The notes beneath the pieces were generated by a model. The model searched no databases, was not told where the DNA came from, and saw only the letters and a program-made list of their open reading frames with translations. From a bacterium (GTDB taxonomy: Bacteria; Patescibacteriota; Patescibacteriia; UBA1558; S5-K13): DNA of 15,464 nucleotides. Shown here piece after piece: positions 2,697 to 15,464 of this stretch (position 1 is the stretch's first letter; each line of letters starts with the position of its first letter). Location: assembly GCA_029555085.1 (NCBI GenBank), contig JAKPTO010000010.1:1-15464 (forward strand), in the 5' to 3' direction. The translations under genes and the position numbers were made by a program.

Positions 2697-2858
2697 ATGT
2701 TTTCGAAAATCATTAACAATTTTGAAAATTATTTTCAATTACTTGGTTTTGATATGTCTGGAATCTACAAAAAAATATATATCAATTCTGAAATACAATA
2801 TCATCTCAATGAAATTGAAAAATGTGAAGATGAACTTAAAAATATTGGTAAAAAATGA
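2697..2858 (+). CDS. small hypothetical protein, 53 aa
   Basis: Manual translation MFSKIINNFENYFQLLGFDMSGIYKK...ELKNIGKK. The stop overlaps the next ATG (ATGA). Confidence 0.5.
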   Translation: MFSKIINNFENYFQLLGFDMSGIYKKIYINSEIQYHLNEIEKCEDELKNIGKK

Positions 2859-3244
2859 TAAAAGAACAAATGCCCGAAAATATTGGTGAATTAAAAAAAC
2901 TCATTGAAAGATATGAGACAATCACTCTCAAAGAAATAGAAAATGTGTGGACGGAAATGTCTCATTATTATGATCCAATGAAACCGGCGTATCTTGTTTC
3001 ACGAAAATTGACTGGATTTGGTACCACAATAACTTGTAATGTATGCCAAGCAGTTATGGATGATAAGGACGAGCCACATTGTGGGAAATGTGTATGTGGT
3101 AAACAATTAAAAGATTGTCTTTTATATCCATACAATAAAACCTATAAAAAAATAATTCAAGCTAAAACACCAGAAAAATTGTTGGTCGCTTATAGAAAAC
3201 GTGGGGAACATTTGAAAAAATATTTTAAAGATTTTATAAAATGA
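2855..3244 (+). CDS. Cys-rich putative metal-binding protein, paralogue of 3455-3817
   Basis: TGFG-x-CxxC...CxxC...C motif; shares NIxELKxLIExYETIxL and AKTxxxLxxAxRKRxxHL with 3455-3817. Confidence 0.8.
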   Translation: MIKEQMPENIGELKKLIERYETITLKEIENVWTEMSHYYDPMKPAYLVSRKLTGFGTTITCNVCQAVMDDKDEPHCGKCVCGKQLKDCLLYPYNKTYKKIIQAKTPEKLLVAYRKRGEHLKKYFKDFIK

Positions 3245-3454: not shown

Positions 3455-3817
3455 ATGGCAACAGCAAAAAATATTGATGAACTTAAAAGTCTCATTGAAA
3501 CATATGAAACAATTAGTTTGGAAGATATAAAAAAAGTGTGGTCTTCTATTTTTAACAAGAAAAACAAAAAATCAGATTATCCGGGAAGAGATGTGGCAAA
3601 AAATATAACGGGGTTTGGAACTTTTTCATGTATTTTATGTGTAAAAGTAAAAAAACAGTGTCACTATTGTGTTTATGGGGAGTATATTGGGTGTATACTT
3701 TTTTCTCATAAAGAGACATATAAAAACATATCAGAGGCAAAAACATCAAAACAGTTATATAATGCATTTCGTAAAAGAGCTAAACATTTAAGAGAGTATT
3801 TTAACGACATACTATAA
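3455..3817 (+). CDS. Cys-rich putative metal-binding protein, paralogue of 2855-3244
   Basis: TGFGTFSCILC...CHYC...C; aligns along its length with 2855-3244. Confidence 0.8.
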   Translation: MATAKNIDELKSLIETYETISLEDIKKVWSSIFNKKNKKSDYPGRDVAKNITGFGTFSCILCVKVKKQCHYCVYGEYIGCILFSHKETYKNISEAKTSKQLYNAFRKRAKHLREYFNDIL

Positions 3818-6321: not shown

Positions 6322-7077
6322 GTGAAAAAACACCAACATATAAAAAACTTTTTCAAATTTATTAATGATAATGATGAACGAAAAATACCAATACAAATTA
6401 AATTGGATTTATTTCCTGAATATCTAGATGATGAAGAAAAAGACTATATTTTAACATCAGAAAAAATTTCATTTGAAAAACGAGCACGATATATAAATTA
6501 TATTAATAAAACAAATAGATGGGATTTTATTGCACCTTTTGGTTCTTTTTCACCAACAACCACCCTTGCCATTAGTAAAAACAATAACGTTTATTTTATT
6601 AATTTATCCGGTGAGCAAGATGTTACCGGAATTGATAAATATAAGTTATTTCATACCGAATATTATTACCCAGCAATCCTACGTGGAGGAGAAGCGAGAG
6701 CCGCTTATTTTAATGCCTTATTTGAAAAAAATATATTTAAATATATTTTCAAAATGGATGGTTTTTTCGGACCAAATGTGGCCGTGGCAATATTATATAA
6801 TCCGAATGGATATAACAAAAACAATTATGGCGGACGAATTTTAATTAATCATAATGGAATAGCTGATGTTTCACAAGTTGATCTTTATGATATATTAAAA
6901 CGTAACGCTTCAGAAAAAGACCTTGCAGCTTATTTTAACACATTAATCGGGCGTGATGATATATGGTATGTTTACAAAAAAAAGCATACAGACGAAATTG
7001 GTGATTATTTCGATGCTACTACAATATATAACGAGAATATTCGTATTTATATGTCAGGAGAAGTTATTTATGTATGA
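6322..7077 (+). CDS. WG-repeat-like beta-repeat protein, paralogue 1
   Basis: GTG start; N-terminal QHIKNFFKF; repeats DFIAPF..LA..YFINLSGEQDVTGID and ILINHNGIADVSQVD; AxYxN motifs. Confidence 0.75.
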   Translation: MKKHQHIKNFFKFINDNDERKIPIQIKLDLFPEYLDDEEKDYILTSEKISFEKRARYINYINKTNRWDFIAPFGSFSPTTTLAISKNNNVYFINLSGEQDVTGIDKYKLFHTEYYYPAILRGGEARAAYFNALFEKNIFKYIFKMDGFFGPNVAVAILYNPNGYNKNNYGGRILINHNGIADVSQVDLYDILKRNASEKDLAAYFNTLIGRDDIWYVYKKKHTDEIGDYFDATTIYNENIRIYMSGEVIYV

Positions 7078-7688
7078 ATTTAAAAAACCAACATATAAAA
7101 AACTTTTTTAGGTTTCTTGAAAAAAAAGAAAATAGAAAAACAAAATTTGTTATTAAATATCGCATTATGCCCGAAGACATATCTGAAAAAGAAATGGATG
7201 TTTTTAAACATCATATTTCACCGGAAAAAAGGGCGGGATTATTCAATGGTATATTTAAAAAAATTTGGTATAGTTATGTTTTACCTTTTGATATTGTAGC
7301 ACCATCTTTAGCTTTAGCCACACAACTGGATAAATTTTTACTTATAAATCAATATGGTGAACCGAATGTGACCGGAATTGATTTAAAAAAACTTAGACAA
7401 AATGTTATTAATGATGAAATTCCTATTGGATATTTAGAGGGTTATTTAAATTCAGTACAGGAAAGATTTTTGTATTATAATTTGGATCGTAAATCTTTAT
7501 CCTTTCTTCCGGAAAATTTATTTCTTATAACAGTAAGTTTATCATTAAATCTAATGATAATTGTTAATGAGAACGGAATGCCGACTACAAGTGGTGTTAC
7601 CAAAAAAATAAAAAAACAAATAGAAGATATTCAGCCTGACGCATATGAAAATACAATAAATGTTATGATACGTTTTAAAATGATTTAA
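7074..7688 (+). CDS. WG-repeat-like beta-repeat protein, paralogue 2
   Basis: N-terminal QHIKNFFRF; VLPF..ALA..LLINQYGEPNVTGID; IVNENG. Confidence 0.75.
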   Translation: MNLKNQHIKNFFRFLEKKENRKTKFVIKYRIMPEDISEKEMDVFKHHISPEKRAGLFNGIFKKIWYSYVLPFDIVAPSLALATQLDKFLLINQYGEPNVTGIDLKKLRQNVINDEIPIGYLEGYLNSVQERFLYYNLDRKSLSFLPENLFLITVSLSLNLMIIVNENGMPTTSGVTKKIKKQIEDIQPDAYENTINVMIRFKMI

Positions 7689-7755
7689 AATTAAAAATTG
7701 AAAACTAATAATCAACATATAAAAAACTTTTTTAGGTTTCTTGAAAAAAAAGAAA
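7089..7755 (+). repeat. 43-bp exact direct repeat at the 5' ends of paralogues 2 and 3 (7089-7131, 7713-7755); first 20 bp also at 6334-6353
   Basis: CAACATATAAAAAACTTTTTTAGGTTTCTTGAAAAAAAAGAAA read directly at both positions. Confidence 0.9.
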
Positions 7756-8444
7756 GTAGAAATATACCAGATATTACAATATTCATGTTATTTCCTGAAA
7801 TGATTAATGATGATATTTGGAATTGTTTATTTTATAGTGATAAAGATACGTGTATAGATTTAAGAACAAGATACATTAATAAAATAAGTGGTTTGTTTTT
7901 TGATATGATTTTACCATTTAATGTGATTTCAAAACATCACGCATTGGCGTATGATTATGATGAAATGGAATTTTATACCGGTTATATTATAAATAAAAAG
8001 GGTGAAGTAAGTGTCAAAGGATTAGATATCAATAAATTTTATGGTGGTTATATTCCAAATTTACAATATATCGTCGCAGCATATGTAAATACATTGAACT
8101 GGACAAGATATGACTATATTAAGTATGGTGTTGCGACATTAATCCCAAAAAATATTTTACCCCATCACGCTAGTGCGATTCCTAAAGGCGAGGATGAATT
8201 TTATTCAGTTATTGTTGATTTAAAAACGGGATTAAAAGAAACATCATCTTTTGATTTAAAAACTATAGAAAAACTAGTCGATGCCGGATATGGTGCGGCG
8301 TATTTTAATGGTATAGTCGTCGGAAATCTTTATTCCGGAATTAGTTTTTATGACGATACCAAAAAAACACTAGTCGGAAAATCACTTGACGGTAAAAAAG
8401 TATTGATTGATACTGAAGGAAATCTTATTAAAATATTAAATTAA
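7698..8444 (+). CDS. WG-repeat-like beta-repeat protein, paralogue 3
   Basis: TTG start; QHIKNFFRF; ILPF..ALA..IINKKGEVSVKGLD; LIDTEGN. Confidence 0.75.
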   Translation: MKTNNQHIKNFFRFLEKKESRNIPDITIFMLFPEMINDDIWNCLFYSDKDTCIDLRTRYINKISGLFFDMILPFNVISKHHALAYDYDEMEFYTGYIINKKGEVSVKGLDINKFYGGYIPNLQYIVAAYVNTLNWTRYDYIKYGVATLIPKNILPHHASAIPKGEDEFYSVIVDLKTGLKETSSFDLKTIEKLVDAGYGAAYFNGIVVGNLYSGISFYDDTKKTLVGKSLDGKKVLIDTEGNLIKILN

Positions 8445-8459
8445 AATCTTTTCGAAAAA

Positions 8460-8491
8460 TTTGTTTTTTTCATTTTTTTGTAATATCTTTG
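8460..8491 (+). promoter_or_regulatory. Bacteroidota sigma-A promoter
   Basis: TTTG 8460-8463, 20-nt spacer, TATCTTTG 8484-8491; intergenic. Confidence 0.75.
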
Positions 8492-10874: not shown

Positions 10875-11302
10875 TGAAATATCCACTTAAATTCAAAGAC
10901 ATTGGTTTGTCATCACATGTATATCTGTCTCAAGAAAAAGGTCTGGAATACATAAAAAAATGGATGACCATTACAATGAATAAAATTTATGAACAACAAG
11001 GACAATTGGATTATTTCTTGTTCTTTATCAACGATAAATTACAAATACATCTTGAAATTATACCACCTCAACAACTTTCCACACCTGAAGGTAAAGAAGA
11101 AATAAGAAAAAAAATAAAAATAATTTGTTCTTATCAAAATGTCATCGCCGGCGGAATAAATGATTTTTTAAATTATAACAAGAAAAATAAAAATAAACAA
11201 CCTGTTATTATATCAATATTTTCGACTGCAACCAAAACCACCTTGGGTAACACACTCAATGATACTACAATTAATAAAATGTTTTCAAGTTTATTTGAAT
11301 AG
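10874..11302 (+). CDS. hypothetical protein, paralogue of 11327-11854
   Basis: IP..LSTPEGK, IAGG, IFST, FSSLFE; ends in triple stop TAG TGA TAA. Confidence 0.75.
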   Translation: MKYPLKFKDIGLSSHVYLSQEKGLEYIKKWMTITMNKIYEQQGQLDYFLFFINDKLQIHLEIIPPQQLSTPEGKEEIRKKIKIICSYQNVIAGGINDFLNYNKKNKNKQPVIISIFSTATKTTLGNTLNDTTINKMFSSLFE

Positions 11303-11326
11303 TGATAATTGAAAAATATATAAGAC

Positions 11327-11854
11327 ATGAATGAAATTCCAGATCTCGAAAATTTAAGACAAGAATTACTTACTTTTCCAACAACAGAAGATGCGTTGAA
11401 TTATTTGAAAAAGAAACTAATTTGCACCATCACGTCATTCTTTAAAAAACATGGTCCATTACCTTCAATGGTGTTTTTCGTCACTAGTGACTTATATCCG
11501 GAATTTATATTGATTCCCAGCATTGGACTTGAAACACCTGAAGGTAAAACAGCATTAAAATATACAATATTAGATATGTGTAAAGACCCAAAAATCATTG
11601 CTGCAGGAATGATTGTTAATGGTAGTGCGAAAATATTAAAGAATGAAAAAAATGATGAGACACAAAAAAATGATTTTGAAGATACACAAGATATAATCAT
11701 GTTAATTTTTTCAACACCAAGTAATGAAGAAGCAATTACATATTATGTTAATTCTGAAACCAAAACTATTTTGGGAAAAACATCATTTACCAACGTTCAA
11801 TGTGGTGGAAAATTTTCAAATTTTTTTGAATTGAGAAAAGCAACTATGAATTAA
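11327..11854 (+). CDS. hypothetical protein, paralogue of 10874-11302
   Basis: IP..LETPEGK, IAAG, IFST, FSNFFE; shared 15-mer ACACCTGAAGGTAAA at 11081 and 11534. Confidence 0.8.
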   Translation: MNEIPDLENLRQELLTFPTTEDALNYLKKKLICTITSFFKKHGPLPSMVFFVTSDLYPEFILIPSIGLETPEGKTALKYTILDMCKDPKIIAAGMIVNGSAKILKNEKNDETQKNDFEDTQDIIMLIFSTPSNEEAITYYVNSETKTILGKTSFTNVQCGGKFSNFFELRKATMN

Positions 11855-11899
11855 AAAAAATATATTAAACACAAACAATGTTTAAAAAATTTAAAAATA

Positions 11900-12183
11900 A
11901 TGGAAAAAACAGTTGAAATTAATGTACCAGATGGTTATGAAATTGACAAAGAAAAGTCGACTTTCGAAAAAATAGTATTTAAGGCTATTGAGCAAAATCT
12001 TCCAGAATGCTGGGAGGATTTGAAAAGTATTGAAGGATATTATATGGAAATAATATAGATACTGTTGTTATATTTTCTATAAGACACACTCTTGCCTTTA
12101 AATCTCCCGAACTCAGAGATAAATTCATTTCCTATCCTAAGATTAGAGAACTTATTATAAAGGCAATACCATTATTGGGATAA
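11900..12183 (+). pseudogene. frameshifted, probably internally deleted Bacteroidota phage hypothetical gene
   Basis: 11900-12058 encodes MEKTVEINVPDGYEIDKEKSTFEKIVFK..LPECWEDL then TAG. The -1 frame (12034-12183) encodes ..HTLAFKSPELRDKF..RELIIKAIPLLG, which I recall as the C-terminus of the same family. Confidence 0.6.
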
Positions 12184-12208
12184 AATGTAATTTTAAATAA
12201 TATAAAAA

Positions 12209-13636
12209 ATGAGCATACCTCTTACTCGTAAAATCAAATTATCGGTATACGTTCCAAATACCATTACAGAAGAAAAAGAAAGACACGAATACAAAACATT
12301 TGTGTGGCAACTTTTGAGAAAGGTAAATCAACAAAACTATGAATTTCATAACCTATTGGTAAAGAAACTTATTGAACTTGATTCCGTTCTCGAAGGACGG
12401 CTTACCGAAGACGATAATTTCATCGAAATTCGCAACCGTTATTACTCAGATAGAAAAGATAAAAAAAATCAACGGGAGTTTTTTGATTATATCAGAATGA
12501 AAAAAGATGAATTGATTAAAGAATTTGGTGGAAAAAATCTACATGGGTACATTTATACCTATTTGAAAAATTATATTAAATCCCTTCCAGAAGAACAACA
12601 ATTCATGGCATCATATACTTATGGATCCATTTCAAAAAATGTTGTCGACAAATACACTAACGATCAGTTCGATGTGTTTAGAGGTGTAAAAACTATTGCT
12701 ACGTATAAAAATACACAACCGATACCAATTAACATTATAGGACATGTCAAAAAAAATGAAAAAGGTGAGTTATATAAAAACACCGGAAAAGAATGGTTTA
12801 ACAAATATGATGACATTTATACATTCAAATTTAAATCAATTAAAAAACACGAAATTGAATTACAACTTAATTTTGGAAAAGACAGATCAAATAATCGAAT
12901 AATTGTCGATAGAATTTATAATAACGATCCAAATTATAAAATTTGTGATTCAAAAATCCAAGTCGTTGGAACAGAAATTTTTCTGTTACTAGTGTTTAAA
13001 CAATTTGTAACAAAACGAGAATTAGGTCTTGATGTTAGAAAAGTAATTGGAGTTGATTTGGGTGTAAAAAATGTGGCTACAATAGCAACAAATTTCTCTG
13101 ATCACATAGAAATAATTGGCGAAGGTGAGTTTGTTTTGATGAGAACTAAATTACAAATTGAAAAACAAAAAAGATCTATACAAAGAAATTCAAAGTATTC
13201 TAGAGGTGGACATGGAAGAAATAGAAAATTACAGAAATTAAACGAATACAGAAATTATGAACGTAATTTTCGTTCAACATTTAATCATAAAATATCGAAA
13301 GATGTTATTGAAATTGCAATAAAACATGGGGCTGGACAAATTAATATTGAAGATCTATCTTCTATTCCATTAAAAGAAAAAAATAACAGAATACTTAGAT
13401 TTTGGTCATATTATGACTTAATACAAAAAATTATATATAAAGCTAAACGAGAAGGTATAATTGTTAATTTGATTAATCCCAGTTATACCTCACAAAAATG
13501 CCATCAATGTGGTCAAATCGGAAACAGGCCAAAACAAGACACATTTTTATGTACCAATCCCACATGTAAAGCATTCAATGAACCAATTAATGCCGATGTT
13601 AATGCCGCCAAAAATATTGCTAAAATATCACTATAA
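12209..13636 (+). CDS. cas12f: Cas12f/TnpB-family RNA-guided RuvC endonuclease (type V-F-like), catalytic triad intact, 475 aa
   Basis: RuvC-I VIGVDLG (D283), RuvC-II INIEDL (E381), Zn ribbon C431/C434/C448/C453, RuvC-III NADVNAAKNIA (D463). RGGHGR, NHKIS, WSYYDL-QKIIYKA and YTSQKC closely follow AsCas12f1 as I recall it. A tracr/repeat region lies downstream. Confidence 0.85.
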   Translation: MSIPLTRKIKLSVYVPNTITEEKERHEYKTFVWQLLRKVNQQNYEFHNLLVKKLIELDSVLEGRLTEDDNFIEIRNRYYSDRKDKKNQREFFDYIRMKKDELIKEFGGKNLHGYIYTYLKNYIKSLPEEQQFMASYTYGSISKNVVDKYTNDQFDVFRGVKTIATYKNTQPIPINIIGHVKKNEKGELYKNTGKEWFNKYDDIYTFKFKSIKKHEIELQLNFGKDRSNNRIIVDRIYNNDPNYKICDSKIQVVGTEIFLLLVFKQFVTKRELGLDVRKVIGVDLGVKNVATIATNFSDHIEIIGEGEFVLMRTKLQIEKQKRSIQRNSKYSRGGHGRNRKLQKLNEYRNYERNFRSTFNHKISKDVIEIAIKHGAGQINIEDLSSIPLKEKNNRILRFWSYYDLIQKIIYKAKREGIIVNLINPSYTSQKCHQCGQIGNRPKQDTFLCTNPTCKAFNEPINADVNAAKNIAKISL

Positions 13637-13639
13637 AAA

Positions 13640-13671
13640 TTTGGTTTTTATGATATTTTTTCTTATATTTG
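13640..13671 (+). promoter_or_regulatory. Bacteroidota sigma-A promoter driving the guide-RNA region
   Basis: TTTG 13640-13643, 20-nt spacer, TATATTTG 13664-13671; directly after the nuclease stop and followed by non-coding DNA. Confidence 0.75.
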
Positions 13672-13677
13672 TACAAA

Positions 13678-13816
13678 AGTTCTTTGATATATTGGAAATT
13701 ACCTTTTTAATAGGTAATTGGGGCGGTTGTGCGTCCATAAAGTTGAGGGAGTGTCCTAAGAAATTAAAATCGAACAAAGACACATATAACCACTCACTAA
13801 GTACCCTTTTTTTATT
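13678..13816 (+). ncRNA. putative tracrRNA/scaffold for the Cas12f-like nuclease
   Basis: Hairpin AATTACCT/AGGTAATT (13697-13719). Hairpin GGGCG/CGTCC with loop GTTGTG (13726-13731) complementary to the repeat end CACAAC. Stem TGAG-GG-GTGTC/GACAC-CC-CTCA (13744-13796). Anti-repeat TACCCTTTTTTTATT (13802-13816). Confidence 0.7.
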
Positions 13817-13866
13817 TAAAAATTTTCGAACAACAGCCACAAAATCACGTGTTTATTCATCGGTAT

Positions 13867-13922
13867 GTTGGGGATGATAACAAAAATCTGGGTATACACA
13901 ACAACACATTGGTTCATCCACG
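13867..13922 (+). CRISPR. single 36-nt CRISPR-type repeat (13867-13902) plus candidate ~20-nt guide (13903-13922)
   Basis: GTTGGGGATGATAACAAAAATCTGGGTATACACAAC has GTTG...CAAC termini and pairs with two tracr segments. It is followed by AACACATTGGTTCATCCACG and a short T-run. Only one full copy exists, so it is not a conventional array. Confidence 0.6.
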
Positions 13923-13968
13923 TATTTTTAAATAATAATGAATTGTATCATAATAAAATTGACAAAAA

Positions 13969-14115
13969 ATGAAAGTATATCAATTATCTAAAATCAATGG
14001 CTATTATTGGTGGACAGGGACATCAATACTAACCACAATACCAGAAGAAAATTATGAATATAAATGGACTTCTGATTTTAAATTTGTTGAACAATTAAAT
14101 GGAAAGAAAATATGA
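13969..14115 (+). CDS. small hypothetical protein, 48 aa
   Basis: Manual translation MKVYQLSKINGYYWWTGTSILTTIPEENYEYKWTSDFKFVEQLNGKKI; ATGA overlap with the next gene. Confidence 0.55.
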   Translation: MKVYQLSKINGYYWWTGTSILTTIPEENYEYKWTSDFKFVEQLNGKKI

Positions 14116-14318
14116 AAGTATATGTAGTTTATCAAGAAAATGGATTTGGTGGTTCAGAAGTTGCTGAAATATTTTCATCACGGAATATAGCAAGAGAATA
14201 TGTTATTGATGAAATATTTGGCAAAAATCAAGCGTATAAAAACAAGACAGAAAACGTATTAAATAATTGTGCCGACCAGTTTATTCACGAACACGATGTT
14301 CTTTTTAATTGGCGGTAA
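14112..14318 (+). CDS. hypothetical protein, 68 aa
   Basis: ORF track. Its TAA stop lies in the TAAC of the adjacent attC-like site. Confidence 0.7.
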   Translation: MKVYVVYQENGFGGSEVAEIFSSRNIAREYVIDEIFGKNQAYKNKTENVLNNCADQFIHEHDVLFNWR

Positions 14319-14410
14319 CGATCCGGTGCTATGAGAAGGCCGGGAATTTGAAATACTTACTTGTCAACGAAGCGCAAACACCCGGCTTTTTTATAGCACG
14401 TGTTAACGCC
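14311..14410 (+). repeat. attC-like hairpin site 1
   Basis: TAAC 14316-14319 ... 19-bp arms 14326-14344 / 14381-14399 (G:T wobbles) ... GTTAACG 14402-14408. Confidence 0.75.
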
Positions 14411-14448
14411 TGTTTTTCATTGCCTTTCTTATTTAGAATCAAAACAAA

Positions 14449-14515
14449 TTACAACGATTGTTGTAAAATAGTTGTCAAAACATTTGGAAGTAATACAACA
14501 AATGTTGTATCTTTG
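14449..14515 (+). promoter_or_regulatory. promoter with two palindromic operators TACAAC-N4-GTTGTA
   Basis: TTTG 14483-14486, 21-nt spacer, TATCTTTG 14508-14515. Operators at 14450-14465 and 14494-14509; the second overlaps the spacer and -7 box. Confidence 0.75.
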
Positions 14516-14545
14516 GTGTATACAAAAACACTAAAAATAAACAAA

Positions 14546-14932
14546 ATGAAAGCACTTCAAATTATCAACAAATCAAGCGTAGAAGTAGAAAAAATGTATT
14601 GGACACCAAATCAGTATGATGTGACAATTAAAAACTCAAACGGAGTTCATGTTTTTGGTGTTAAATTAACATCAGAAGGAACATTTGAACTTTTTAACTA
14701 TCAGTTTAGCGAAGCAAATCAATTGTTAGTTGATAGTATTAAACCATTTATTTTATTTGAAATAGTTGACGTTGAATCATGCAATGAAATGCAGATTGCA
14801 TTCCCTACAGAAAAATTAAACAATGTAAAATCATTGGAAGATATGATTTTTGATTCTAAATCAGAATGGGTTAATGCAGGTTGCCCAGTTAGTACTTTTG
14901 CTGAAGAACAATATAGCGATAGAAATTATTAA
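14546..14932 (+). CDS. hypothetical protein, 128 aa (MKALQIINK...)
   Basis: In-frame ATG at 14546 after the promoter and an A-rich leader. The ORF-track extension to 14309 runs through the hairpin and promoter. Confidence 0.75.
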   Translation: MKALQIINKSSVEVEKMYWTPNQYDVTIKNSNGVHVFGVKLTSEGTFELFNYQFSEANQLLVDSIKPFILFEIVDVESCNEMQIAFPTEKLNNVKSLEDMIFDSKSEWVNAGCPVSTFAEEQYSDRNY

Positions 14933-14934
14933 TC

Positions 14935-15300
14935 ATGAAAAAACAAAATTACCATGAAGCTGAATTGGGCAAAGTGCCTGATTCAGTTAAAAACATCGAG
15001 TTTAAAGGAACTGTTATTGATGCTTCGGACTGCAAAGAAAAAAAGATTGCTGATATTTTATCAGGTAAGCATGATAATGACTTTATCGACAAAGAGAAAT
15101 TCCAAAGAAACTCTTATTATTTAGCGTATCACAAGGCTACTGAAATGCTCAACTGGGCAGAATTAAGTAGAACGCTTGCCGGTGATCGCTCGTCGATAAC
15201 AAAAGAGCGCATTCCTCAAAAGCATATTCAAAAAATTGACGAATTACGAAAATTAATGTCAGCGTGGATTTTAGAAAATGATCCGCAATTCAATCGCTAA
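14935..15300 (+). CDS. putative HTH-like DNA-binding protein, 121 aa
   Basis: C-terminal LNWAELSRTLAGDRSSIT looks like a helix-turn-helix; starts 2 nt after the upstream stop. Confidence 0.65.
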   Translation: MKKQNYHEAELGKVPDSVKNIEFKGTVIDASDCKEKKIADILSGKHDNDFIDKEKFQRNSYYLAYHKATEMLNWAELSRTLAGDRSSITKERIPQKHIQKIDELRKLMSAWILENDPQFNR

Positions 15301-15312
15301 CGCTGCGCCCTT

Positions 15313-15452
15313 AAAATAGGCGTTAACGTTTTGCGTGTATAAGAAGTGGTGGAATTTGAAACCGAAACTTTCAACAAACGCAGAACTTAATTAGAATTAA
15401 AAAACTTTAAATTAACCGAGAAATCCGCCATTTTTTATACACGCTGTTAGTG
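15313..15452 (+). repeat. attC-like hairpin site 2
   Basis: TAAC 15324-15327 ... 21-bp arms 15333-15353 / 15424-15444 (3 G:T pairs) ... GTTAGTG 15446-15452. The loop begins GGAATTTGAAA as in site 1. Confidence 0.75.
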
Positions 15453-15464
15453 GCTGGGCTTTCT

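Follow-up and report, generated by a model that had tools for sequence, protein, structure and literature searches.

Cas12f effectors of type V-F CRISPR (short palindromic repeats that are clustered and regularly interspaced) systems are already known, and so are phage CRISPR systems without adaptation genes. The nearest characterised relative of the protein discussed here is Al3Cas12f/Cas12f-MG119 (type V-F; PDB 9NZO, 9NZR). As far as the available text of its description goes, it was found on an Alistipes contig, is an obligate dimer, works with a trans-activating CRISPR RNA (tracrRNA) and a CRISPR RNA (crRNA), and uses T-rich protospacer-adjacent motifs (PAMs), guides having been chosen beside TTR (PMC13186708). 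Huge-phage CRISPR systems without adaptation and viral mini-arrays are described, in the accessible parts of two reports, as phage-borne, without Cas1, with short arrays and with guides against viruses, in the case of the mini-arrays related viruses; the mini-arrays borrow effector and repeats from the host (PMC11656645, PMC7099407). Here we describe a locus that shares features with all of these. It lies in what we call the window, the whole stretch of DNA analysed, which is a complete contig of 15,464 bp (C4) in an assembly of 1.02 Mb (53 contigs, 29% G+C). The window carries a cas12f gene (protein P0001), followed by a tracrRNA-like RNA, one CRISPR repeat and a guide (Table 1). Unlike the mini-arrays as described in those reports, the phage of the window has its own effector and tracrRNA, and its guide passes without a break into DNA that lies downstream in the target itself. 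Our literature searches found no paper on a phage Cas12f whose guide continues into the target's own flank.

Our preferred reading, to which we assign a probability of about 0.6, is that the window holds a functional Cas12f module of a jumbo phage without Cas1, that the remaining crRNA targets a rival phage, and that the layout of the locus is the scar of a recombination between a spacer and its protospacer. The first 20 nt of the guide occur exactly in three IMG/VR viral contigs (L162, L163 and L164), where they are preceded by ...GCACGAATT. There is no second match in the assembly with up to four mismatches, and none in 13 related genomes with up to two. Identity to the viral contigs does not end with the guide. 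It begins exactly at 13903, the first base after the repeat, and continues into the contigs' downstream DNA (blastn: L162 99.9% over 1,562 nt and L163 99.9% over 1,426 nt, to the window end; L164 98.1% over 431 nt). Directly left of this breakpoint the viral contigs read ...ACTGTTGCACGAATT and the window reads ...CTGGGTATACACAAC. An intact open reading frame (ORF) crosses the breakpoint in all three contigs, reading ...LLHELTHWFIHVF..., and in L163 (1592-1945) it matches phrog_87 'metallo-protease' (E = 4.4e-6); genes for a DnaB-like helicase, an SNF2 helicase, a replisome organiser and a DNA methyltransferase are its neighbours. CheckV rates the rival contigs as about 20% complete at 10-11 kb, which implies a phage much smaller than the jumbo phage. 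The allele without the cassette co-occurs with the Cas12f module in one public sequencing run (X15).

Chance can hardly account for a breakpoint that coincides to the base with the boundary between repeat and spacer. Such a breakpoint is the expected outcome if a spacer acquired from the rival phage later underwent recombination with its protospacer; it would also be expected at the end of a TnpB-type element, a possibility to which we return below. Varble et al. reportedly described spacer-protospacer recombination in 2019, between arrays of bacteria and transducing phages and not in a Cas12f array carried by a phage. Such an event would yield a repeat, a spacer and then the target's downstream sequence, and the locus, in which repeat and guide lead straight into genes of the target phage, resembles a natural record of such recombination between two phages.

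We propose the following mechanism. The module would be a type V-F effector module of a large, jumbo-type phage with a Bacteroidota host in activated-sludge-type habitats, without adaptation genes and with cas12f, a tracrRNA behind a promoter of its own and a CRISPR array as its parts. Type V-F effectors cleave double-stranded DNA as asymmetric homodimers, guided by RNA and dependent on a PAM. To judge by homology, a dimer with its dual RNA would here use the approximately 20 nt past the repeat as guide. This guide, which has the same letters as the inside of a metalloprotease gene of another and smaller phage lineage from these habitats, would direct the enzyme to a site preceded by AATT, and the carrier would be spared self-cutting because in its own genome the repeat takes the place of the PAM side. 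The origin would be a spacer against the rival phage, followed by spacer-protospacer recombination that fused the array to the rival's downstream genes. The present function would be the cutting of rival genomes during co-infection. Repair of the resulting break from the carrier's homologous right flank could, in addition, spread the cassette in a homing-like manner.

One could also argue that spread is the whole point. A phage-borne Cas12f may have returned to a TnpB-like selfish life, as a homing cassette that is guided by RNA and passes from one phage to another, unrelated one. The crRNA of the terminal repeat, here the only one, would always read into neighbouring DNA and so would cut rival genomes without the cassette; repair from the carrier would copy cas12f, tracrRNA and repeat into the rival, with conserved active-site codons (HExxH) as landing sites. 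We consider this unlikely. A role in inter-phage conflict or in homing, as suggested from a first reading of the letters alone (hereafter the sequence-only reading), is plausible, since the guide is found exactly in contigs of a rival phage. If either the recombination scar or RNA-guided homing is true, then the locus links CRISPR interference to the mosaic evolution of phages.

When P0001 is aligned with the 11 relatives nearest to it (46-66% identity), E381 and D463 are invariant, as are the zinc ligands C431, C434, C448 and C453, and D283 is conserved in 11 of the 12 proteins, the exception (P0007) having N. Pfam finds a Cas12f1-like TNB domain (PF07282, residues 401-470, 63.6 bits) and an OrfB_IS605 domain (PF01385, residues 277-384, 37.8 bits), both above cut-off. 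Alignment and Pfam thus confirm the 475-aa protein with RuvC residues and a zinc ribbon that the sequence-only reading had recognised, and size (within the 400-700 aa of this class), split RuvC (D, E, D) and C-terminal zinc ribbon are those of a type V-F effector. When a profile made from 12 homologues was compared with all PDB chains, the top solved match was Al3Cas12f (9NZR/9NZO; E = 2.4e-67, residues 4-474). AsCas12f, CnCas12f, OsCas12f and RhCas12f (1e-55 to 1e-48), nuclease-dead Cas12f (dCas12f; 1e-31) and Un1Cas12f (about 1e-29) came next, and Cas12p (5e-16), TranC (1e-7) and ISDra2 TnpB (4.3e-8) matched less well. An AlphaFold (AF2) model from the same 12-homologue alignment (mean predicted local distance difference test score, pLDDT, 83) gave the same order of proteins in Foldseek, with 9nzr_A as best match (E = 2.8e-26) and TnpB 8h1j at 7e-10; the TM-scores are just 0.45-0.48, a level to be expected when a protein of several domains is modelled in the absence of its RNA.

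Because Al3Cas12f is matched so much better than ISDra2 TnpB and Foldseek gives the same order, P0001 is, judged by sequence and predicted fold, a Cas12f, and neither a TnpB in the narrow sense nor a Cas12f2. The NCBIfam model for Cas12f2 (NF049972) scores 95 bits against a cut-off of 450, and the one for IS607_TnpB 46 bits against 350. The guided_TnpB model (NF040570) scores 159.1 bits against a curated cut-off of 100, a match that by its nature indicates only membership of the wider TnpB/Cas12 superfamily. With its catalytic residues intact, P0001 is apparently an active nuclease. The triad and the best match in sequence and fold, Al3Cas12f, both agree with the earlier suggestion of a nuclease-competent, Cas12f-like protein that differs from the nuclease-dead homologues. 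A homologue that is 55% identical (P0007) has GINLG in place of GVDLG at D283, with E381, the zinc ligands and D463 retained; this member of the clade may be inactive.

P0001 resembles Al3Cas12f in size and in its intact RuvC and zinc ribbon, and both come from a Bacteroidota setting and from systems with tracrRNA and crRNA, as far as the available text states for Al3Cas12f (PMC13186708). The differences are that P0001 is only about 29% identical, is phage-borne, has no adaptation genes in its genome and has one repeat here. AsCas12f, CnCas12f and Un1Cas12f (type V-F1) share fold and catalytic layout but are more distant (E = 1e-55 to 1e-29), and the N-terminus of Un1Cas12f is longer (chains of 529-539 aa). 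Cas12p, named a 'hacker', is likewise presented, in the accessible part of its preprint, as a small phage-encoded type V effector with a tracrRNA that is proposed to act against rival nucleic acids; unlike P0001 it belongs to a different family of 500-700 aa (bioRxiv 10.1101/2025.01.20.633832), and its match to our profile covers the RuvC end only. Large Bacteroidota phages would have a distinct Cas12f clade with a defined tracrRNA and repeat, which makes P0001 a candidate compact editor.

The question whether the locus is better explained as a transposon deserves separate treatment. TnpB with the omega-RNA of IS200/IS605 elements was reportedly characterised by Karvelis in 2021 and Meers in 2023. 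In a TnpB-type transposon (IS200/IS605 or IS607; IS, insertion sequence) the omega-RNA stops where the right end of the element lies, and flanking sequence necessarily serves as guide. Such elements have defined ends, are usually present in several copies and often carry tnpA. Some features of the window point this way: guide and flank are the same sequence, homology breaks off at one precise base, the allele without the element is the target, the guided_TnpB score lies above its cut-off, and PHROG annotates P0001 as 'transposase'. Cleavage of the allele without the element would favour retention or spread, as for TnpB. Nevertheless, we think that a transposon is highly improbable, for the following reasons. 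First, the element is a single copy, and no terminal or inverted repeats bracket it among the repeat families of the window. The earlier observation that there are no IS ends holds. Second, there is no TnpA in the window, the only Y1 match being on another contig (C6), and we found neither a second copy with the same ends nor an empty site joining approximately 12060-12200 to 13903. Third, the RNA starts past the stop codon behind its own promoter-like site, so that it does not overlap the 3' end of the ORF, and it is a separate tracrRNA that is followed by a CRISPR repeat. Fourth, relatives have real arrays. Fifth, the protein is nearer to Cas12f, with E values of 1e-67 to 1e-29 for solved Cas12f proteins and 4e-8 for ISDra2 TnpB, and falls far below the IS607_TnpB cut-off.

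The sequence-only reading proposed that the locus is, in evolutionary terms, intermediate between TnpB and Cas12f and has one hard-wired guide. The combination of a Cas12f-like protein and a tracrRNA with a guide derived from the flank speaks for this proposal, and the phylogeny speaks against it. From 158 proteins encoded at related loci we left out five shorter than 330 aa. The catalytic triad is intact in 129 of the remaining 153, and 100 of these 129 have an array of at least three repeats within 700 nt. It is broken in 24 (about 375 aa, dCas12f-like), 16 of which have short arrays. In a FastTree phylogeny of 75 representatives (collapsed at 85% identity, midpoint root), P0001 falls into a clade of 12 rows with support 100, which includes the array-bearing loci L130 and L049; its neighbours are array-bearing, and the dead proteins form a separate clade. 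Of the members of the P0001 clade, these two have a readable context. L130 (61% identical to P0001) has six 36-nt repeats with five spacers of 29-30 nt, and L049/L129 (53% identical) has seven repeats with six 30-nt spacers, in both cases after an RNA homologous to that of the window. The single repeat would thus be secondary, since the clade is nested among array-bearing Cas12f, and the ranking of PDB matches argues likewise. The tree was built without a TnpB outgroup. As an intermediate, the locus is to us hardly more credible than a transposon, all the more as the same repeat forms arrays in other sequencing runs (see below).

The nuclease-dead relatives are a group of their own. As described in the available text on dCas12f with sigmaE (PMC12259090; PDB 9N9C), they belong to the same superfamily and phylum, lack the C-terminal part of RuvC, use single chimeric guide RNAs and lie beside rpoE (PMC12259090). 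P0001, unlike these, keeps its D/E/D triad and zinc ribbon, and no ORF in the window matches a sigma-factor family. The dead proteins in our tree (L141-L161 from IMG/VR, L043 and L044) are relatives of about 375 aa without the RuvC triad (F/L/- and similar), mostly on viral contigs.

Between cas12f and the repeat lies a putative tracrRNA, which the sequence-only reading had described as about 140 nt of non-coding DNA behind a separate promoter, followed by one 36-nt repeat and a guide. These claims hold at the coordinates of Table 1, and conservation in L130 and L049 and covariation support them. The spacing TTTG-N20-TATATTTG is what we take to be the Bacteroidota -33/-7 promoter consensus, and the TATATTTG box also precedes the RNA in L130 and L049. 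The stems around the loop GTTGTG or GTTGTA show compensatory changes among the RNAs of the window, L130 and L049 (GGGCG/CGTCC, GGCTG/CAGCC, GGGTG/CACCC). No reading frame is open across the RNA region in L130 or L049, so that the open frames over it in the window are due to chance. The same RNA motifs are also found directly behind the homologous gene at many loci. Stability does not by itself count as evidence, since the folding energy of 13676-13826 is no better than that of shuffled sequences (z = 0.23). Rfam contains no match to the RNA, and a permissive scan of the whole window yields only a chance microRNA match (E = 0.89).

In Cas12f systems with dual RNAs, such as AsCas12f, CnCas12f and Un1Cas12f, the repeat pairs with the tracrRNA at two sites, and the locus would fit this scheme. 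By homology, the 3' anti-repeat would pair with GGGUAU, and the hairpin loop GUUGUG with the last six bases of the repeat, CACAAC. Comparison among loci supports both pairings. At 28 tracr-like sites, the loops GTTGCA, GTTGGA, GTTGTA and GTTGTG go with arrays whose periodic hexamers are TGCAAC, TCCAAC, TACAAC and CACAAC; the exact reverse complement of the loop is the hexamer periodic in the array at 16 of the 28, and the best of 15 control NNCAAC hexamers is periodic at only two. Loop and repeat end thus covary across the family. Similarly, the segment after CACTCAnnAA is complementary to the repeat just upstream of the NNCAAC hexamer, perfectly over 8 bp in 12 of 18 loci, with a mean of 7.3/8 within a locus and of 6.2 across loci (two perfect in 128 comparisons). 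RNAduplex alone does not single out any pairing, so that the pairing model rests on the covariation of loop and repeat and on the anti-repeat statistics. In the Alistipes loci examined we found the motif TTCTTTGATA, a GTTGGA loop and the repeat end TCCAAC, which resemble the arrangement in the window; loop and repeat end of the window are GTTGTG and CACAAC. Based on conservation and covariation, we predict that 13677-13813 is the tracrRNA of this Cas12f. The contig of one RNA library (run X17) begins at about 13686, near the predicted start, behind letters that we take to be Illumina adapter; this is at most a hint at an RNA end.

Two further observations concern such RNAs and promoters. At L058 (2070-3224) and L059 (2640-3796), the scaffold motif CACTCACCAA occurs four times downstream of a Cas12f-like gene, 320-450 nt apart, and in L058 it is followed by short repeats of the TAGTATATACAAC type; L081 has the motif twice downstream and L079 once only. 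L058 and L059 may have several tandem guide-RNA units instead of a classic array. In the window, one repeat family (D3) consists of three AT-rich stretches (2637-2685, 8442-8490 and 13622-13670) with a spacing similar to TTTG...TAnnTTTG before gene blocks, which makes them candidate phage promoters. The density of TAnnTTTG as a marker of foreign origin was dropped, as it is 1.8/kb in the window and 1.95/kb in the remaining assembly.

The repeat itself is not recognised by overall similarity. Its identity to the repeats of L130 and L049 is 20-21/36, which is chance level in an AT-rich window. We identify it as one because it follows the RNA and a leader that ends in GGTAT, because its last 12 nt (GGTATACACAAC) are identical to the L049 repeat, because it is complementary to the loop, and because contigs exist in which it alternates with spacers. 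A second copy is absent from the window and from the whole assembly with up to eight mismatches. A scan of the viral contigs of IMG/VR found no match to the repeat, and that collection possibly holds no near relatives of the window.

The alternation with spacers was found in public sequencing runs. At least half of the sampled words of 13640-14160 are present in 20 runs from 13 studies of sludge, wastewater, bioreactors and biofilm; six of the runs come from RNA libraries, and the window DNA itself may derive from 13 of the 20. Logan contigs of four runs (X2, X6, X15 and X17) were aligned to 11800-14400. In X15, an RNA library, a 96-nt contig consists of repeat, 30-nt spacer and repeat. A contig of this type is also present in the DNA run X6, where the depth of repeat words is about 160 compared with 15 for the cas12f contig, which suggests an array of about ten repeats. 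Apart from the assembly, at least two runs have contigs with the one-repeat form. In X2, one contig is unbroken from 13522 to 13981, with the single repeat joined to the same flank. In X17, also an RNA library, one contig (depth 26) extends from 13686 to beyond 14400, and the sole other piece covers 12532-12720 (depth 3). In X2 the stretch 12148-12234 is covered by no contig, and coverage of cas12f by the RNA runs is fragmentary; we draw nothing from these gaps.

From the multi-repeat contigs in other runs and the arrays of the clade members, it appears that the one-repeat state is a derived variant, in which an array has collapsed within a Cas12f lineage that bears arrays. The fixed guide that the sequence-only reading ascribed to the system is therefore not supported. 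Overall, what had been seen in the letters is confirmed, and its interpretation is partly supported. The occurrence of the same module with about ten repeats and with one in public runs allows a one-repeat Cas12f to be compared with TnpB ancestors.

Could the one-repeat form be an artefact? If 13903-13932 were an internal spacer of a longer array, then the assembler could have jumped from it into an abundant rival phage with the protospacer. The joint lies exactly at the boundary of repeat and spacer, longer arrays exist, two long continuations follow the repeat in X6, and apart from this locus the rival lineage is the one known source of the right flank. The k=31 contigs of X2 (13522-13981) and X17 (13686 to beyond 14400), however, cross both ends of the would-be 30-nt spacer, and by the reasoning of de Bruijn graphs contigs of this kind should be interrupted at a 30-mer common to the two paths, had both existed. 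The words of the stretch that spans the joint are, as said, present by at least half in all 20 runs, including those that may be DNA sources. We regard a chimera as very improbable.

A more serious concern is that the single repeat may represent a decaying array. The module would then be a useless remnant, the 'guide' mere flank, and the match to the rival a by-product of mosaic phage genomes. Only one repeat is left, other runs have multi-repeat forms, and by eye no hairpin terminator is evident after the guide, where the sequence is the coding sequence of the rival. The anti-repeat duplex of the window is short, 6 bp (GUACCC with GGGUAU, one G-U pair), and hence at 6/8 weaker than in most relatives. 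On the other hand, the protein is intact in all its catalytic and zinc ligands; its exact sequence is found on 67 contigs (the longest 193.5 kb), and at 90% identity it forms a cluster of 12 members. The one-repeat form recurs in X2 and X17. In Cas12f systems any sequence after the repeat becomes a guide, and this one has perfect targets that co-occur with the module in X15. Taken together, we consider decay somewhat unlikely.

Several further results, like the short duplex, weigh against our preferred reading of a functional module with a recombination scar. The AATT in front of the target is T-rich but fits the TTR of Al3Cas12f only with a register shift of one base. Targeting of phages by this clade rests on one guide, because exact scans with spacers of L130 and L049 gave nothing or their own array, and a search with all 11 spacers and up to three mismatches against all collected loci and genomes gave only low-complexity matches. 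Left of 13903, nothing in the viral contigs resembles either window or assembly, and a mobile unit, if there is one, has no defined left boundary; a scan with a 24-nt word from 12009-12032 matched no viral contig. In X6, one contig joins the last 29 nt of the repeat to 13903-14263, and another of 6,343 nt (depth 13.8) opens with the same 29 nt and an A and then diverges from the window; the same array is thus found with two alternative right flanks. An RNA-library contig of X15 spans 13609-13896 and so reaches upstream of the proposed RNA start, and Logan contigs cannot, in any case, prove transcription.

Finally, a solitary repeat could be an RNA anti-CRISPR, that is, a repeat unit transcribed to poison the Cas12f of the host. 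Solitary phage repeat units are known to act in this manner, according to the accessible part of the source (PMC11656645). In the window, the phage's own intact cas12f and tracrRNA adjoin the repeat, and neither a second Cas12f homologue nor a similar repeat (up to eight mismatches) is present in the host bin or assembly. This explanation is barely credible to us.

Table 1. Features of the Cas12f module and its right flank (positions in the window)
Feature	Position	Strand	Remarks
cas12f gene, 475 aa (protein P0001)	12209..13636	+	open frame; RuvC D283/E381/D463; zinc ribbon C431, C434, C448, C453
Promoter-like site	13640..13671	+	TTTG (13640-13643), 20 nt, TATATTTG (13664-13671); putative function
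tracrRNA-like non-coding RNA, ~137 nt	13677..13813	+	conserved in L130 and L049, covarying hairpins
5' end of the RNA, conserved AAGTTCTTTGATAT	start of 13677..13813	+	
RNA hairpin	13697-13719	+	
RNA hairpin with loop GTTGTG	13721-13736	+	loop 13726-13731
CACTCACTAA	13791-13800	+	part of the RNA
Anti-repeat GTACCC	13801-13806	+	opposite repeat GGGTAT
T-run	13807-13813	+	end of the RNA
Leader between T-run and repeat	13814..13866	+	ends GGTAT, likewise in L130 and L049
Single 36-nt CRISPR repeat GTTGGGGATGATAACAAAAATCTGGGTATACACAAC (GTTG...CAAC)	13867..13902	+	GGGTAT 13890-13895 opposite anti-repeat; CACAAC 13897-13902 opposite tracr loop
Guide (spacer equivalent)	13903..13932	+	first 20 nt AACACATTGGTTCATCCACG (13903-13922); also start of the block shared with rival phage contigs
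Block shared with viral contigs without the cassette	13903..15464	+	blastn; identity begins exactly at 13903
3' stump of phage metalloprotease gene	13903..13970	+	cut inside HExxH codons (CAC GAA TT|A ACA CAT)

What carries the module? The locus L130 belongs to a complete phage of 364,702 bp with direct terminal repeats (G014; 100% complete according to IMG/VR and CheckV). Besides cas12f, the window resembles this phage at the protein level in at least five segments (2412-2582, the paralogue pair 2837-3232/3467-3799, 11465-11839 and 11882-11983), and 14-24% of each of the contigs C35, C34, C1 and C6, as well as of the window, matches it. The bin thus seems to hold about 95 kb of jumbo phage. 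Together with the viral contigs that carry the target, these segments bear out the phage context that had been proposed. The Bacteroidota setting, which had been proposed as well, rests on the type IX secretion system (T9SS) and on names. Five proteins with T9SS sorting domains are encoded in the bin, four on contigs unlike the phage and one on the phage-like C34, and 42 of the 46 genome loci that encode relatives bear Bacteroidota names. The simplest reading of these sequences would be a large phage of a Bacteroidota host with a small genome, binned with that host.

The neighbours of cas12f say little about function. Every sizeable ORF in the window is on the forward strand, none of the 20 scanned reaches a Pfam curated cut-off, and neither a sigma factor nor TnpA nor another cas gene was recognised among these ORFans; two of ten ORFs have PHROG matches, of unknown function. 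Cas1 was found neither in the assembly nor in the 364.7-kb phage, by a search that was positive in 7 of 14 known genomes used as control. The earlier claim that cas1, cas2, cas4, TnpA and sigma factors are missing from the neighbourhood stands, as far as these searches reach. A homologue search of the whole assembly shows that the cas12f element is single-copy and that there is no second Cas12f homologue. A scan of IMG/VR with the single protein sequence found nothing, the relatives having been found only via the alignment. The window DNA is absent from the 13 related genomes apart from AT-rich matches of at most 115 nt, and blastn of 11000-15464 against GenBank phages gave no match.

Some minor observations on the phage remain. 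A Y1 (IS200-like) transposase domain lies at C6:248-607 of a phage-like contig, in a frame of 197 aa (27.7 bits against a cut-off of 23), with no TnpB homologue beside it. In L130, a tRNA with a long extra arm (8076-8171) begins 50 nt past the last repeat; according to ARAGORN it is a tRNA-His whose anticodon is atg, and Rfam scores it as a tRNA with 29.5 bits. The idea that the L130 array abuts a truncated tRNA was discarded: a T-loop-like motif, GGTTCGATTCC, can be seen by eye in the bases that directly follow the last repeat, but neither ARAGORN nor Rfam calls a tRNA at 8027-8062, and an exact scan matched only the locus itself. The Cys-rich paralogue pair of the window (2855-3244 and 3455-3817; repeat D4, 80% over 74 nt) has its homologues at 193.4-194.2 kb of the complete phage. 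Three tandem paralogues of 251, 204 and 248 aa (6322-8444), marked by the repeat families D1 and D2, share the N-terminus QHIKNFF(K/R)F..., and at least eight further DNA matches to this N-terminal region are found on contig C14. By sequence, the QHIKNFF proteins are a multi-copy ORFan family of the phage.

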